A stretch of 46,183 nt of DNA from Bdellovibrio sp. Lineage in GTDB: Bacteria > Bdellovibrionota > Bdellovibrionia > Bdellovibrionales > Bdellovibrionaceae. The stretch spans positions 1 to 46,183 of the forward strand of contig JBKCUU010000029.1 in NCBI GenBank assembly GCA_046318155.1, given 5' to 3'. This document shows positions 18,383 through 23,579 of the stretch, piece by piece. The stretch's first letter is position 1, and each line of letters starts with the position of its first letter. The notes beneath the pieces are model-generated. The model worked only from the letters and a program-made list of their open reading frames with translations, was not told where the DNA came from and made no database searches. The translations under genes and the position numbers were made by a program.

Positions 18383-20389
18383 ATGAACCAAACAGGACGT
18401 ATTGGCCTTTCGCTTTTTCTTGTGCTTCTGACAAGTTGTGCGCACAAGAGAACGAGCAACGAAACACCGCTTCCTGTTGGCGCCGTGCAGGACGTTGAAT
18501 CCTTCCGGCTCAGCGATCCCGAACCTCCCGCGGTTGTCGATCAGGAGCTTGATAATACCCCCAGTGAGATGAACGCTCTGGTGCAACAATGGGTGAACTA
18601 CTTTCAAGGCCGCGGACGTCCTCATATGGAACGGTACTTGGCGCGCAGTTCGCGCTACAGTGCGCTCATGAAGCGAATCTTAAAGCAAAATGGTTTGCCT
18701 GAGGATTTGATCTACATCGCCTTGATTGAATCTGGTTTTAGTTCGCGGGCCACTTCACGAGCTGCGGCCGTTGGTTACTGGCAGTTCATTAAAGGGACCG
18801 GCAAGCGCTATGGTCTTGAGATCAGTGGTTTGGTCGATGAGCGCCGCGATCCTGTCTTGTCCACTCAAGCGGCGGCCGAGTATTACAAAGGTCTTTACAG
18901 TATGTTTGGTTCTTGGTACCTGGCGATGGCCTCGTACAATGTCGGTGAAAACCGTGTGAAGCGCGAAGTGATGAACCACTACACGCGCGACTTTTGGGAG
19001 CTTGCTCGCAAAAAACGCCTGCCTAAAGAGACAATCAATTACGTTCCTAAGTTTATTGCAGCGAAAATGATTGGTAATAATCCAGCAAAGTTTGGCTTCA
19101 CGGATATTGATTACGAACAACCAATTGAATTCGATACAGTTAAAGTGAGCCATCCCGTGAACTTGCGGCTCATGGCGAGCAAAATCGGTCTGGAGTACGA
19201 AAACTTTAAACAGCTCAATCCGAAGTTCAAAGGCGAAATCGCACCTGCCAAAAGAAATGGTGCACTTGAGCTCCGGATTCCCGTGGGTCAGTCGGAAATT
19301 GCGATGAACGCGGCTCGCGAGTCGGCCGTCGATAAAGTCCAAATGATTGCGGATGCGGGAGATACCCAAACTTACAAAATCAAATCGGGCGATAGCCTTT
19401 ACACGATCGCTCGTAAGTACCGGACGACTGTGGCTTTCTTGCGTGATTCAAATGACTTAAAGCCGGGTCGTAAATTACGCATCGGTCAGCGGATCCAAGT
19501 TCCTGACCGGACGGCTCGTAAAGCTGCAACCAAAGTGGCCGTCGTGAAGCCAATACCTGAAAAAGTAGGGAAACCTTCGGATCAAGAAAAAGCGACGACG
19601 AATCCCGAAGTTGTTCGTGGCGGCGTTGTTTATTACATCGTTCAACCGGGTGATACGCTCTCGGCGATTGCTGATGACTATGATTCATCAATCTCTGAGC
19701 TTCGCAAAATGAACCGTTTGAGTAAAGGCGGCGTTCTTAAAGTTGGAATGCGTTTGAAGGTTCCCAAAGACGATGGACTCCCGCAAGATCCCAATGAGGC
19801 AAAAACAAATGTGGCCGCTCAAACTTCGGGTCCCACCGAGACCGCTTCAGAGTCTGCGACTGCAGAGCCTGAAACAGCGGCAGCAGCCCATGTGGTTCGT
19901 CCCGGTGAAAATCTGACGACGATTGCAAAAAAATACGGTGTGACGATCCAGGCTCTGCGAAAAGCGAACAAACTCAACAACCGATCGATGTTAAAGGTCG
20001 GCGCACGCTTGGTCATTCCATCTGAAATTCAGGACAAGGGGATTGATCCCACTGGTATTGACGGTGGGGCTCGCCGGCCCGCCTCGACAAATCATAAAGT
20101 GACGCTCAAGCGGAGCCCTGCGAAGGTCGCCAAGAGTCCGCTTCGACGACCCAACAAAAAAATGACGAATAGCAGTCCTTCGGTCAACGCGAAGGCCCCG
20201 GCTAAATACGCGGCAAAAAAAAAGTCCAGTAAAGTGCACGTCGTTCGGCCCGGAGAGAACCTCACTTGGATTGCACAAAAATATGGTGTGAGCTTGAATA
20301 CTTTAAAAAAGAAAAACCAGATGAACTCTGGTTCTAAGGTTCTCGTTGGCGCTCGACTTTTGATCCCTACCGCTGACGCCGGCCAGTAA
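18383..20389 (+). CDS. mltD: MltD-like lipoprotein lytic transglycosylase with four LysM domains
   Basis: Lipobox LTSC, IESGF, GYWQF, DERRDP, SYNVG, LPKETINYVPK; four LysM repeats. Confidence 0.9.
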   Translation: MNQTGRIGLSLFLVLLTSCAHKRTSNETPLPVGAVQDVESFRLSDPEPPAVVDQELDNTPSEMNALVQQWVNYFQGRGRPHMERYLARSSRYSALMKRILKQNGLPEDLIYIALIESGFSSRATSRAAAVGYWQFIKGTGKRYGLEISGLVDERRDPVLSTQAAAEYYKGLYSMFGSWYLAMASYNVGENRVKREVMNHYTRDFWELARKKRLPKETINYVPKFIAAKMIGNNPAKFGFTDIDYEQPIEFDTVKVSHPVNLRLMASKIGLEYENFKQLNPKFKGEIAPAKRNGALELRIPVGQSEIAMNAARESAVDKVQMIADAGDTQTYKIKSGDSLYTIARKYRTTVAFLRDSNDLKPGRKLRIGQRIQVPDRTARKAATKVAVVKPIPEKVGKPSDQEKATTNPEVVRGGVVYYIVQPGDTLSAIADDYDSSISELRKMNRLSKGGVLKVGMRLKVPKDDGLPQDPNEAKTNVAAQTSGPTETASESATAEPETAAAAHVVRPGENLTTIAKKYGVTIQALRKANKLNNRSMLKVGARLVIPSEIQDKGIDPTGIDGGARRPASTNHKVTLKRSPAKVAKSPLRRPNKKMTNSSPSVNAKAPAKYAAKKKSSKVHVVRPGENLTWIAQKYGVSLNTLKKKNQMNSGSKVLVGARLLIPTADAGQ

Positions 20390-20430
20390 AAAGAAAGCCC
20401 GTAAATTAAGTTCCTCTTAATTCACGGGCT
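20388..20430 (-). terminator. Intrinsic terminator for a minus-strand transcript convergent with mltD
   Basis: AGCCCGTGAATTAAG-AGGAA-CTTAATTTACGGGCT followed by TTCTTTTT; the single mismatch is a G-U pair only on the minus strand. Confidence 0.85.
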
Positions 20431-20472
20431 AAGGGGAATGAAACCTGTATTTTTGAAATTTGACGTGATCAT
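20422..20472 (-). CDS. Candidate 16-aa peptide MITSNFKNTGFIPLSP downstream of the riboswitch
   Basis: GGAAGGA-5 nt-ATG; the only ORF noticed with an SD between aptamer and terminator. Confidence 0.35.
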   Translation of the reverse strand: MITSNFKNTGFIPLSP

Positions 20473-20548
20473 AACTGTCCTTCCAGTCCGACTAAGTGCC
20501 GCTTACAGCGTCACTCGTGCCTATGCGGTCTGAAGAGTTTAACTCTTA

Positions 20549-20655
20549 TCCCTCTGGCAGTCTGGCTGGCATTCGGAATGTAAAAATCTTGATTCCGAGA
20601 AGCCCCTTTAGCTTTGCGCCCCACGGTTTCCCGAGGTTTGCCTTTGGCAAAGGAA
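20549..20655 (-). promoter_or_regulatory. c-di-GMP-I (GEMM-I) riboswitch aptamer
   Basis: GGCAAACC-TCGG-GAAA-CCGTGG-GGCGCAAAGCTAAAGGG...CAGCCAGACTGCC; P1 UUCCUUUG/CAGAGGGA; G20, A47 and C92 equivalents present. Confidence 0.92.
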
Positions 20656-20772
20656 GGAATCAGCACTCTTAAGTCTTCGCTAGGCCTCCTTCGTCTATCG
20701 GTTAGTTTACTTTGGTTGATGTTAAGACACTTTTTGCTGTGGTTGAAGCTTTCTCGCTTTTAGGACCGCTTC

Positions 20773-20829
20773 CTACTGGTAGGAGGGGTCGGCAAGAACT
20801 CTGACTCTTCCTGCTTTGCTCTTTTTCAC
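20773..20829 (-). CDS. Candidate 18-aa basic peptide MKKSKAGRVRVLADPSYQ
   Basis: AGAAAGGTGG upstream of GTG; stop lies within the TCCTAC/GTAGGA hairpin. Confidence 0.2.
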   Translation of the reverse strand: MKKSKAGRVRVLADPSYQ

Positions 20830-21075
20830 CGAGACCACCTTTCTGACGTGGAATCAGAATACCTCGACCAAGGACCGGGCGAAACTAAAAGGCGCCGCTC
20901 GTCTCAAATCAAATCGTTTTCCGTTTCAAAATCAGAGAAGATAAATGCCAAGGAACCTTGCCGTGTCTCAAAATTTTTACTCAAAACTTAGGGTCTTCAG
21001 CGACCTCTAGGGACTCGTTCGGTATGAAAGCACAGAAGCTTTTTCCTTAAAAGCAATTGCGATAAAAATTTCAGC

Positions 21076-23058
21076 TTAAAAACCCAATCTTTTCTTAAGT
21101 TCTTCGGCGGCTTTTTTGGCTTCGTTTTCGATGCCTTTTTTAGCTTTGTTTTCTTCGTCTTTTTTGGCCACGTTCATTTTGCCTTCAGCTTCTTTCTTTT
21201 TGGAGTCGAGCTGGGATTGGAGCTTTTTAATTTCGCCGTCGACTTGGCCTTTTACTTTATTAAAATTGCCCTCGAGCTTGGCCTTTTCTTTGCCCACTTG
21301 CTCGTTGATAAAGTTTTGAACTTTGAGTTTGGCTTCGTCAATTTTGGCTTTGACGGCATTTTCAAAACCGCGCTGCAGTTCGGGTCCCAAGTTTGAATTG
21401 ATGGCAAGCCCCAGGCCCGGCAAGCGGCCTTCACCTTGAACATCGATGGTGAGAACGGGGAGTGACTTAAAGACATTTTTGAGAATGCTATCGACGATCT
21501 CATTTTTTGCCTGAATTTGGTAATCCACTTGCTTCAAGTCGTTATTCAGCGTGAATTCAAAATCTCGCAAGCCCACCAATTGACCTTTGGACTGGATCGA
21601 GGCTTGTGCTTTTTCGAAGGCGATGGTCACGTCTGCCGATTGCACAATTGAGCGCCCAACGATGGGGTAGTCGGCCACATTCATGTCGTAAGAAATTTTG
21701 CTGTCGGCTTTGAGGTTGTCGAAAGTTCCTTTGAACTCAAAACCTTGGATCGACATCGTTGGAAAATCACCCTTGAGGCTTGCGGTCGTGGGTTTGCCAA
21801 TCAGGACTTGATTCGACGTCACGTCGGTGATGAGACCTGCAAGGTTACCTGTACCAAGTGTGGGACTGGCTTTTGAACTGATGCTGATTTTACGAACCCA
21901 AAAAATCGGGTACGATTTCGGCTTTCCAAATTCGTAGGTGGTCCCATCGGCGCGAGGGCGGGGCTGCATCTGAATATCGACTTCGTCGGGTTTGCCTTTT
22001 TTCATTAAATTGGGAGGCATGTATTTTTCGGCCATGCCTCGGTACTGACTCAAGCGCTGCAAGGAAGGATCGATGTAAGGGCGAAACAAAGACTGCGCTA
22101 AATTTTTAGCATCGAGCTTGGGAATTTTAAAACGATTCTCAAGCTCAGCGATGTCTTTTTGGACAAGGGCATCAAGTTCGTTGAGGCCTTGTTCGAACTG
22201 TTTAAGATCCGTGTTGATCGTGCTGCCGGTCTCAGCTAAATTTTTGTACTTTTGATCCGCTTCTTCGGCCACGGCTTTGAGTTGGTTGACGGATTCGACC
22301 AGTTCTTGGGGAGATTTGAAATTGCTGGTTTTGATTTTTTTGACTTTCTCGCCGAGGGCATCAATCTCTTTGGGCTTAGGCAGGGCCGCGATTTTTTGCT
22401 GCCACACTTTTGATTTTTCGTTGTAAGCCTGAGTGAGTTCATTCAAACGTTTTTTTGAAGTCAGAGTTCCTTCGATTTTAGCCAGTTGGTCGTCACCCGA
22501 GGCGCCGCCCAAAAGACCAGCGAGATCTCCGAGGACGTTGTCATTGTATTTGGCTTCGGTTTGATCAAGCGCGCGGTCCTTGAGTTTATTTGCTTCTTTT
22601 TCGAGTTTGCTGGGGCCTTTGTCTCCGGGCTTGATGGGCACTGGGGGCTTGACGCGGCCCGGAGATTTGCGAGGCACGTCGATTTGGATTTGCTCAACCG
22701 CCATCTCATCCACGACGAAGCGGGCGCGCAAAAGGCCGTCCCACAAAACATCAAAGCGAATGTCACCAATCGCGACCATGTTGCTGGTGGGCTTTTGCGC
22801 ATTGGTGATCTGCAGACCCTGCAGGCGAAAGCTACCCTTCCAGAAGCTGGTCTCGAGGCTAGCGATGTCAACTTGCGCGCCAATGACCTGGTAGCCTAAG
22901 TACTCGAGTGCACTTTTTAAATTGCGATCAAATAAGAAGTGAAAATAACCCCAAGTCAAAACGATCACGATCAAAAGAGGAACCGCAGCTTCGGTTCGGA
23001 TCGGGCCTTTTTTCTTGGGCTTTTTTACGCTTGGGGGAGTTTGATGGGGAGTTGTCAT
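21076..23058 (-). CDS. TIGR03545 family protein
   Basis: GPIR..A N-terminus with TM, AsmA-like N-terminal segment, coiled coils; coupled (ATGA) to a TIGR03546-like gene. Confidence 0.82.
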   Translation of the reverse strand: MTTPHQTPPSVKKPKKKGPIRTEAAVPLLIVIVLTWGYFHFLFDRNLKSALEYLGYQVIGAQVDIASLETSFWKGSFRLQGLQITNAQKPTSNMVAIGDIRFDVLWDGLLRARFVVDEMAVEQIQIDVPRKSPGRVKPPVPIKPGDKGPSKLEKEANKLKDRALDQTEAKYNDNVLGDLAGLLGGASGDDQLAKIEGTLTSKKRLNELTQAYNEKSKVWQQKIAALPKPKEIDALGEKVKKIKTSNFKSPQELVESVNQLKAVAEEADQKYKNLAETGSTINTDLKQFEQGLNELDALVQKDIAELENRFKIPKLDAKNLAQSLFRPYIDPSLQRLSQYRGMAEKYMPPNLMKKGKPDEVDIQMQPRPRADGTTYEFGKPKSYPIFWVRKISISSKASPTLGTGNLAGLITDVTSNQVLIGKPTTASLKGDFPTMSIQGFEFKGTFDNLKADSKISYDMNVADYPIVGRSIVQSADVTIAFEKAQASIQSKGQLVGLRDFEFTLNNDLKQVDYQIQAKNEIVDSILKNVFKSLPVLTIDVQGEGRLPGLGLAINSNLGPELQRGFENAVKAKIDEAKLKVQNFINEQVGKEKAKLEGNFNKVKGQVDGEIKKLQSQLDSKKKEAEGKMNVAKKDEENKAKKGIENEAKKAAEELKKRLGF

Positions 23059-23579
23059 CCGTAGAGCTCCTGATATTTCGTGTACCATTTGTAAAGCGAA
23101 GTGGCCGTAAACGCCTTCCAGAATTTGGTGTTCTTGTAACGGGCGACGACGGTGGCTCGGTACTGCACGATCAATTTTTTAAAGATAAAAAAAGCCGGTA
23201 TGGCGAGCAAGAATCCCAGCAAGCCACTTCCCATGACAACCGAGTTGTTAAAGCGCGTGAGCGGGACGATCGGCATATTGTAGAGTTCGACAAAAGCGGG
23301 GCGAAGGGCTTCGCTTTCAAGAACGATGCGGCCCAGAGCGTCCGTCACGGGGTCGAGTAAAAAGGCGACAAACTTAAAGAAGAAGGCCGAGAGAAAAGCG
23401 GCCCCCATTTGGACTCGTAAAAAAATGCAAATCGTCAGCACCAAAAAAGTTTGCAGCGATAAGAACGGTGAGAAACCAAGAACTAATCCCAGGGCTAAGC
23501 CCCAGGCGAGTTGGTTGGTGCCCGTTTCGCTGTTGAGCATGCGAAAGAAAGCAAAAATTTGCTTGAGTAGCAGGGTCAT
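23055..23579 (-). CDS. TIGR03546 family membrane protein
   Basis: LNSET..NQLA.G..LG...GF.P and LYN.P.VP.TRFNN.VVMGS. Confidence 0.88.
   Translation of the reverse strand: MTLLLKQIFAFFRMLNSETGTNQLAWGLALGLVLGFSPFLSLQTFLVLTICIFLRVQMGAAFLSAFFFKFVAFLLDPVTDALGRIVLESEALRPAFVELYNMPIVPLTRFNNSVVMGSGLLGFLLAIPAFFIFKKLIVQYRATVVARYKNTKFWKAFTATSLYKWYTKYQELYG

Follow-up and report, generated by a model that had tools for sequence, protein, structure and literature searches.

The closest described counterpart of the RNA reported here is merRNA of Bdellovibrio bacteriovorus HD100, a 445-nt riboswitch for cyclic di-GMP (c-di-GMP) that is massively expressed in attack phase (Karunker et al, 2013; PMC3627812). 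In the passages of that paper on which we draw, no conserved open reading frame (ORF) is found in a comparison with one other strain, and a c-di-GMP sponge is proposed. Other passages of the merRNA literature, among them two papers that use the merRNA promoter or report its level, make no mention of a reading frame; as far as these passages go, merRNA has been without an established function since 2013, the published idea being that of a passive sponge. We analyzed a 46,183-nt stretch of DNA from Bdellovibrio sp. (contig JBKCUU010000029.1 of assembly GCA_046318155.1; the window), whose minus strand encodes an RNA of this type. In our leading explanation, to which we give a probability of roughly 0.55, the platform of this merRNA-type RNA is bistable, a UCCUUCC segment masks the initiation region of a fixed-frame micro-ORF, and c-di-GMP gates that micro-ORF in the ON direction.

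A second point of reference is C. difficile, where, according to passages of a 2026 report, class-I c-di-GMP riboswitches without an obvious gene precede genes of membrane-associated small proteins, which are controlled by premature termination and repressed by c-di-GMP (PMC13724677). The window RNA resembles the riboswitches described in those passages in being seemingly gene-less, of class I and associated with a small frame, whereas its frame is far shorter, has an unconstrained middle, lies upstream of the terminator and is proposed to be controlled at initiation.

In riboswitches that sequester the Shine–Dalgarno (SD) sequence, such as those of thiM (thiamine pyrophosphate) and add (adenine), a segment common to the closing helix and the anti-SD helix decides access to the initiation region. 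Such a common segment is present here too. The window RNA and its relatives differ from these riboswitches in that the frame has 7–23 codons and sits in a terminated stand-alone RNA, that the masked element mostly forms codons 2–3, and that ligand dependence is a prediction. Leader and arrest peptides, typified by TnaC, and slow termination after a C-terminal proline offer another comparison: here, too, the frame is very short, only its last residues are kept, it ends in proline and a stop at the foot of a terminator, and its body is not conserved. Most loci, in contrast to TnaC-type systems, have no downstream gene to regulate, and the likeness to arrest would be one of resemblance; to our knowledge, (W/R/K)FHSP is not a described arrest motif. 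Finally, dual-function small RNAs such as SgrS/SgrT and RNAIII/delta-haemolysin are abundant regulatory RNAs that carry a small frame, as this one does, but the window RNA also contains a ligand-binding aptamer and the body of its peptide is unconstrained.

A merRNA-type c-di-GMP-I RNA of the Bdellovibrionaceae

The aptamer of the window is assigned to the c-di-GMP-I class by its consensus match to RF01051, which extends over the full model (positions 1–87 of 87) and scores 56.4 bits (E 1.7e-08), above the curated gathering score of 35. It is the only RF01051 copy in the 2.75-Mb assembly, and 59 of 61 genomes of the same bacterial family contain a match, nearly always as a single copy. The RNA has its own intrinsic terminator and no gene follows it on the same strand: the convergent gene, encoding an SLT/LysM protein, ends at 20389, and its stop abuts the T-run of the terminator. 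By our count on mechanically called ORFs, the nearest downstream ORF of at least 90 aa is convergent in 42 of 53 loci. The whole RNA folds with −131.5 kcal/mol (z −2.76). Scanning species-representative genomes with a pattern of the platform returned 76 loci, whose titles read Bdellovibrio, Pseudobdellovibrio, Bdellovibrionaceae or Bdellovibrionales, except for three differently labeled metagenome-assembled genomes; the window RNA shares its platform with these 76 species genomes and belongs to the Bdellovibrio-lineage merRNA type. It is a merRNA-type stand-alone c-di-GMP-I RNA of a Bdellovibrionaceae bacterium. A permissive Rfam scan of 20370–20850 gave nothing besides the aptamer, the next entries, Moco-II (22.1 bits, E 0.14) and SdsR_RyeB (20.8 bits, E 0.27), both lying below the cut-off.

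Compared with merRNA as it appears in the passages cited above, the window RNA is likewise a c-di-GMP-I RNA that stands alone without a downstream gene, would measure ~445 nt and comes from the same lineage; named B. bacteriovorus strains share the platform. In one complete Bdellovibrio genome (G190), the aptamer (1,073,868–1,073,951, minus strand) falls inside the published merRNA interval and the T-run ends ~5 nt from the published 3′ end, a coincidence of coordinates by which no strain identity is asserted. What differs from the published description is the micro-ORF with a conserved frame and the covarying mask helix found across the family, the frame being shifted in the window species.

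The RNA stretch is present in 13 RNA runs from nine freshwater studies, some of only 17–53 million letters. Two of these runs (X3 and X11) were compared as contigs and the other 11 were recognized by word share alone, which by itself is not evidence. The X3 contig (413 nt) covers 20422–20834 and the X11 contig (390 nt) covers 20445–20834, with 0 differences from the window; contig depth cannot rank the expression level. Both RNA contigs end at 20834, beyond which DNA contigs continue. This gives a weak hint that the 5′ end of the RNA lies at ~20834, which would yield the ~445 nt published for merRNA. Since contigs cannot prove RNA ends, their 3′ ends at 20422 and 20445 were rejected as 3′ ends of the RNA, and the 3′ end was placed by the terminator. 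A sigma-70 promoter scan of 20000–21200 returned 0 sites, including the region 5′ of the apparent start at 20834. The stretch directly upstream of the apparent 5′ end (20834–20900, minus strand) is ~75% identical to a same-genus relative.

The b–e helix and its predicted competition with P1

Five conserved elements surround the aptamer in our first set of 60 oriented loci: element a, element b, element e, the block (g) and the terminator (Table 1). Across the family, (A)UCCUUCC is kept directly 5′ of the aptamer as element b, and element e, GGAAGGA, follows a variable hairpin. An earlier note on this DNA, made from the sequence of the window, had described an ATG...TGA frame with GGAAGGA 5 nt upstream (spacer CAGTT) and the UCCUUCC complement; all of these features are present, and every detail is correct. 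UCCUUCC at 20658–20652 is the exact complement of GGAAGGA at 20484–20478, and the pairing extends in the window to 11 bp, formed by GCUG..UCCUUCC (20664–20652) with GGAAGGACAGU (20484–20474), at −14.5 kcal/mol. The same note proposed that the SD can sit exposed in the loop of a GACUG/CAGUU hairpin (20488–20473) and that the anti-SD overlaps the 5′ strand of P1. Both are recovered in the minimum-energy fold, in which anti-SD and P1 share 4 nt. The GACUG/CAGUU hairpin is identical in sequence in the same-genus locus L009 and, judged by eye, is not kept in other genera.

UCCUUCC and GGAAGGA recur in nearly all of the 59 aptamer-bearing genomes of the family, and of 49 loci examined for a b–e duplex, almost all have one. 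Where the two elements vary, the changes are compensatory: UACUUCC with GGAAGUA (L029, L035), GUUCUUCC with GGGAGAAC (L030), UCCUUUC with GAGAGGA (L051, L052) and ACCUUCC with GGAAGGU (L027), while the helix of L016 is lengthened. On an uncurated MAFFT alignment, 88.3% of cells pair at b–e, compared with 46–72% for slid partners, and five of the seven pairs change on both sides. Covariation on this raw alignment is modest, with 12–37 of 500 shuffles reaching the observed values; because several alignment rows are one column out of register, these figures understate the signal. Permuting partners among loci, treated without a correction for relatedness, left each locus's own b–e partner more stable, and only 12 of 5000 permutations matched it. 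These results support reading the SD/anti-SD pairing as a conserved, covarying helix.

The 5′ strand of P1 overlaps element b by 4 nt in the window and by 2 nt in most relatives. For P1 itself (CCUUUG/CARAGG), 93.5% of cells pair, with little sequence variation. In partition-function models, the mean b–e pair probability is 0.01 with P1 enforced and 0.24 with P1 blocked, and among 44 loci it is lower under enforced P1 in 22 and higher in 1. Forcing b–e costs 0–5 kcal/mol in most loci, the two states being close in energy. The initiation region is complementary to a segment that P1 uses alternatively, as in SD-sequestering riboswitches, and the two helices are mutually exclusive in the models. 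Because the b–e helix shares nucleotides with P1, it is reasonable to read the arrangement as a ligand-dependent switch of the initiation region.

A comparable arrangement occurs in other families of the phylum (L138, L140, L141, L144, L145, L147, L148, L151, L160 and L161), where the P1 5′ strand together with its 5′ flank, CCCCCUUUGAAA, is complementary to a downstream segment, UUUCAAAGGGGG, at −20 to −23 kcal/mol. These loci also have a terminator and an outer helix, GAAGAGG/CCUCUUC. Since the P1 strands of other families likewise match a downstream segment, a bistable P1 5′ strand appears to be general in this group. For this reason, and because enforcing P1 removes b–e in the models, we favor the ON direction that the earlier note proposed, in which the ligand would lock P1, the mask would withdraw and initiation would follow. 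Several of the other-family loci have an ATG after the terminator that may start a gene (its sequence begins MAFEGLL...).

Two further segments could engage the same region. Element a, a perfect SD-like heptamer in the 5′ leader, contains a GGAGG that 56 of 59 loci keep at 28–66 nt 5′ of the aptamer, and only four have an ATG 4–12 nt behind it. RNAalifold pairs this GGAGG with CUUCC of element b, which would make element a a third competitor for that strand. A pairing of element a with UUCCCCUU of the block was rejected by inspection, as it contains a central A–C mismatch though both sides are invariant. Separately, UUUGCC, 5′ of the GGCAAA of the aptamer core (window 20641–20651, minus strand), could give rise to a 6-bp hairpin incompatible with the aptamer fold. 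The arrangement UUUGYC-N3-4-GGCAAA is kept in most loci; by eye, loci with GGCUAA have no compensating change.

The short reading frame and the block before the terminator

Allowing no more than one change in its first 13 nt, the block is present in 53 of the 60 loci of the first set. As a frame rule we took the first ATG at or after position e−2. An ATG stands at e−2 (ATG-GAA-GGA) in 30 loci and 11–17 nt after the start of e in 20, giving 50 of 53; in the three loci missed by the rule, the ATG precedes e by 3–4 nt. None of the 50 frames meets a stop before reaching the block, which 39 of 53 loci read as (W/R/K)-F-H-S-P. Counting stop codons from e to the block, 6 loci have one or more in the FHSP frame, compared with 19 and 17 for the other two frames; these 6 are among the loci with a frame other than FHSP. 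CCU is followed by TAG in 24 loci, by TAA in 15 and by another codon in 14. In 43 of 50 loci the ATG has an SD (≤ −4.4 kcal/mol) on its 5′ side, which for members of the ATGGAAGG class is usually a GAGGUG within the variable hairpin's 3′ strand.

The spacing follows a period of three. Within the ATGGAAGG class, 23 of 27 loci are in frame, at distances of 30, 33, 36, 39, 42 and 54 nt. Counted by genus (36 in total), 25 are wholly in frame, 10 are not, and the genus of the window is split. A second set, which overlaps the first in part and was collected with a pattern that took no account of ATG or frame, comprised 70 distinct sequences, 63 of which are in frame, at nine distances that are all multiples of three, and encode 50 distinct peptides. 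In named B. bacteriovorus strains, the peptide is MEGTNTYKDWFHSP. Start, SD and a frame conserved among relatives, as expected of a small gene, are thus found in the family, with the ATG and SD of the window in a minority frame. Selection on the peptide sequence itself was not detected: only the ends of the ORF are conserved, and these at the nucleotide level.

Because of the period-3 spacing, the stop depletion specific to one frame and the position occupied only by TAG or TAA, the frame is taken to be translated in the family; we know of no RNA-structural reason for any of the three. Since the middle of the ORF is unconstrained and the block is invariant even at wobble positions, selection looks as if it preserves translation in a fixed frame together with a function at the RNA level.

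The window species departs from this pattern. In the same-genus relative L009, and also in L100, the usual frame encodes MNSFFSEKYRFHSP followed by a stop; in the window species a 1-nt difference in length shifts the ATG to another frame, which ends at a TGA within the 5′ arm of the terminator stem. Across the ORF, no change is seen in an independent DNA run (X7) or in either of the RNA runs compared as contigs, and for this reason the reading frame of the window is not an assembly error.

These comparisons modify several proposals of the earlier note. Its assignment of GGAAGGA as the SD holds in the window, but in 30 of the 50 ATG loci the same element forms codons 2–3 and a separate SD lies upstream. 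The 16-aa peptide that it named as the product belongs to the minority frame; the usual product of the family ends in (W/R/K)FHSP-stop. Its view of the RNA as a regulated small-protein mRNA gains from the conserved short ORF and the period-3 lengths and loses from an ORF middle without amino-acid constraint, and what "small-protein mRNA" describes may be a regulatory frame of the leader type and not a working peptide. The comparison with relatives that it suggested as a check turned out in its favor as to the covarying anti-SD and the recurring ATG and SD, but the window frame differs from that of the majority and the helix is also found without an ATG frame.

The block may also have a partner within the RNA. 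In the window it (CCCCUUAGC, 20428–20445) is complementary, with one bulged base, to the 5′ strand of aptamer helix P3 (GCUAAAGGGG, 20602–20613, minus strand), and the P3 5′ strand, GCUAnAGGGG, is its best partner in 32 of 52 loci, by our own count without a shuffle control. Both sides of this pairing are invariant; aptamers with GGGA show no compensating change by eye, and a TAG-to-TAA change breaks a pair. Block–P3 pairing is a possibility suggested by complementarity.

Proposed mechanism, alternatives and further features

In the mechanism that we propose, UCCUUCC would either lend its 3′ end to P1 or pair with GGAAGGA ~170 nt downstream. Without c-di-GMP, P1 would be weak and UCCUUCC would mask the initiation region; with c-di-GMP, P1 would be locked, the mask withdrawn, and ribosomes would translate the frame. 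Translation would run into the invariant block at the foot of the terminator, with the usual ending, FHSP-stop, directly before the stem. With no long stretch of peptide preserved, a leader- or arrest-type regulatory ORF is the most likely role of the frame; it could also yield a very small peptide with a C-terminal motif. In the window species, the product would be MITSNFKNTGFIPLSP, and translation would end inside the terminator stem. The elements, their conservation and covariation, the frame statistics and the RNA-library matches are matters of observation; from them we infer that the frame is translated, that c-di-GMP controls it and in which direction, as well as any effect of peptide or ribosome.

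A bolder extension, which we regard as tentative and somewhat unlikely, would make merRNA a ligand-gated messenger for a minimal arrest-type frame instead of a passive sponge. Ribosomes would pause at the FHSP-stop beside the terminator hairpin and, on an RNA whose abundance equals that of all mRNAs together, would couple c-di-GMP to the pool of free ribosomes or to the stability or 3′-end structure of merRNA, helping to drive the switch from attack to growth phase. A micro-ORF start masked by a covarying helix that competes with the sensor's P1 makes the function of merRNA testable. If the proposed mechanism is true, this would be another "orphan" riboswitch controlling a frame too small for gene callers, and the window species would be a natural case in which the frame has slipped and the RNA is still expressed in the environment.

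Several findings weigh against a c-di-GMP-gated, translated micro-ORF. As to the switch, covariation is absent from P1 (163 of 500 shuffles score at least as high), the unconstrained fold of the window already prefers P1, and forcing b–e there costs 5.8 kcal/mol. Element a can also pair with b. The accessibility of the initiation region is 0.40 with P1 enforced vs 0.38 with P1 blocked, being higher in 16 and lower in 7 of 44 loci; the thermodynamic models leave the sign of the switch unsettled. As to the frame, another one is used in 11 of the 50 ATG loci of the first set, the window included, and in 7 of 70 sequences of the second, a tenth to a quarter of the species being out of frame, and 14 of 53 loci lack a stop after CCU. 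Codon positions 1, 2 and 3 of the variable ORF middle carry 37, 50 and 38 substitutions, an even spread, and close pairs differ there by 29 non-synonymous vs 2 synonymous changes. The block does not vary even at wobble positions, and loci that read it in other frames keep it intact, which points to a role at the RNA level; the sister-family loci L139 and L146 retain b and e without an ATG frame behind e. Literature searches, with subscription papers outside their scope, turned up no ribosome profiling of Bdellovibrio and no account of the ORF, and the case for translation is built on sequence.

The alternative that survives best, though we consider it unlikely, is a platform acting purely at the RNA level, in which b–e would be a helix of a non-coding sponge RNA, the block an RNA motif (a C-rich seed or a partner of the aptamer GGGG) and the ATG frame incidental. 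It would accommodate the sister-family helices that lack an ATG frame, the wobble-invariant block kept in all three reading frames, the ORF middle without amino-acid constraint and the block's preference, counted without a shuffle control, for the P3 strand as partner; the passages of PMC3627812, with no conserved ORF and a proposed sponge, also agree with it. We disfavor it because RNA structure alone predicts none of the features of the frame: not the period-3 spacers, with six and nine distinct in-frame lengths in the two sets, nor stops that are depleted only in the frame used and leave every ATG frame open, nor the SD upstream of most ATGs, nor a stop position restricted to TAG or TAA in 39 of 53 loci.

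A switch of the opposite sign appears distinctly less probable. Here c-di-GMP would stabilize the stacking of P1, the variable hairpin and a shortened b–e helix in a three-way junction, closing the initiation region and turning it OFF. The 2-nt overlap between P1 (CCUUUG/CAAAGG) and b–e in most relatives would let 5 bp of b–e coexist with P1, loci of the ATGGAAGG class carry their SD on the 3′ strand of the hairpin that separates P1 from e, and C. difficile class-I examples are repressed by c-di-GMP, as described in passages of PMC13724677. Against such a junction, b–e vanishes from the folding models when P1 is enforced, the overlap in the window is 4 nt, and the analogous alternative helix of other families contains the entire P1 5′ strand.

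Somewhat less probable again is that the GGA elements (AAGGAGG, GGAAGGA, AUGGAUUGG and the terminator loop) are binding sites of a CsrA sponge in the manner of CsrB/RsmY, conserved for reasons unrelated to translation of the frame. GGA occurs in the terminator apex in 32 of 51 loci, compared with 8.6 expected from composition-matched shuffles, the genome encodes csrA (90.3 bits; G000 contig C50, 28053–28208), and element a is kept widely with no ORF behind it. CsrA binding, however, is a prediction from motifs, the shuffle control covers the terminator apex, and a sponge would leave the period-3 lengths and the covariation of b–e unexplained. A CsrA-sponge role could coexist with the gated micro-ORF that we prefer. 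Mere chance, a meaningless 7-nt complement next to a 16-codon frame, is a caveat that the earlier note itself raised and that we regard as already refuted: "GGAAGGA, 4–9 nt, ATG" is not rare in the window (2 matches vs 0.69 expected; 14 of 100 shuffles give at least 2), but what rules chance out is conservation in relatives, not window statistics, as the elements, the pairing with its compensatory changes and the ATG frame recur across 36 genera of the first set and 76 species genomes.

Table 1. Features of the RNA and its neighborhood, in window coordinates.
Feature	Positions	Strand	Details
Stand-alone transcript, merRNA type, putative length ~445 nt	20386..20834	-	5′ leader, aptamer, platform with short ORF, terminator
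Element a, AAGGAGG	20685..20691	-	perfect SD-like heptamer in 5′ leader, no ORF behind
Element b (anti-SD)	20652..20664	-	UCCUUCC 20658-20652, extended by GCUG 20664-20661
P1 5′ strand, UUCCUUUG	20648..20655	-	core CCUUUG 20653-20648; minimum-energy folds
c-di-GMP-I aptamer (RF01051 match)	20553..20652	-
P1 3′ strand, CAGAGGGA	20549..20556	-	minimum-energy folds
Local hairpin GACUG/CAGUU	20473..20488	-	GAAGGA in loop; minimum-energy fold
Element e, GGAAGGA	20478..20484	-	SD of window ORF; codons 2-3 (GAA-GGA) in most relatives
Short ORF, 16 codons and TGA, MITSNFKNTGFIPLSP	20422..20472	-	putative; minority "GFIPL" frame; ATG 20472
Invariant 18-nt block (element g), GGUUUCAUUCCCCUUAGC	20428..20445	-	(W/R)-F-H-S-P-stop in most relatives
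Intrinsic terminator	20386..20430	-	15-bp stem 20430-20396, apical loop AGGAA, then T-run
Convergent gene, 668 aa	18383..20389	+	SLT lytic transglycosylase, four LysM domains

Some minor observations concern the surroundings of the RNA and individual loci. On the plus strand, a terminator-like hairpin followed by a T-run at 20778–20815 is antisense to the 5′ leader, with no plus-strand gene ending nearby. Upstream of the RNA on the same strand, a 670-aa ORF (21076–23088, minus strand) had no Pfam match at E ≤0.001. A tRNA gene lies at 122–194 on the minus strand (56.2 bits). In another genome (G023, contig C7), two aptamer loci, L019 and L048, lie on the same strand 1.4 kb apart; in the first of this pair the block is divergent and a frame of 32 codons continues through the terminator.

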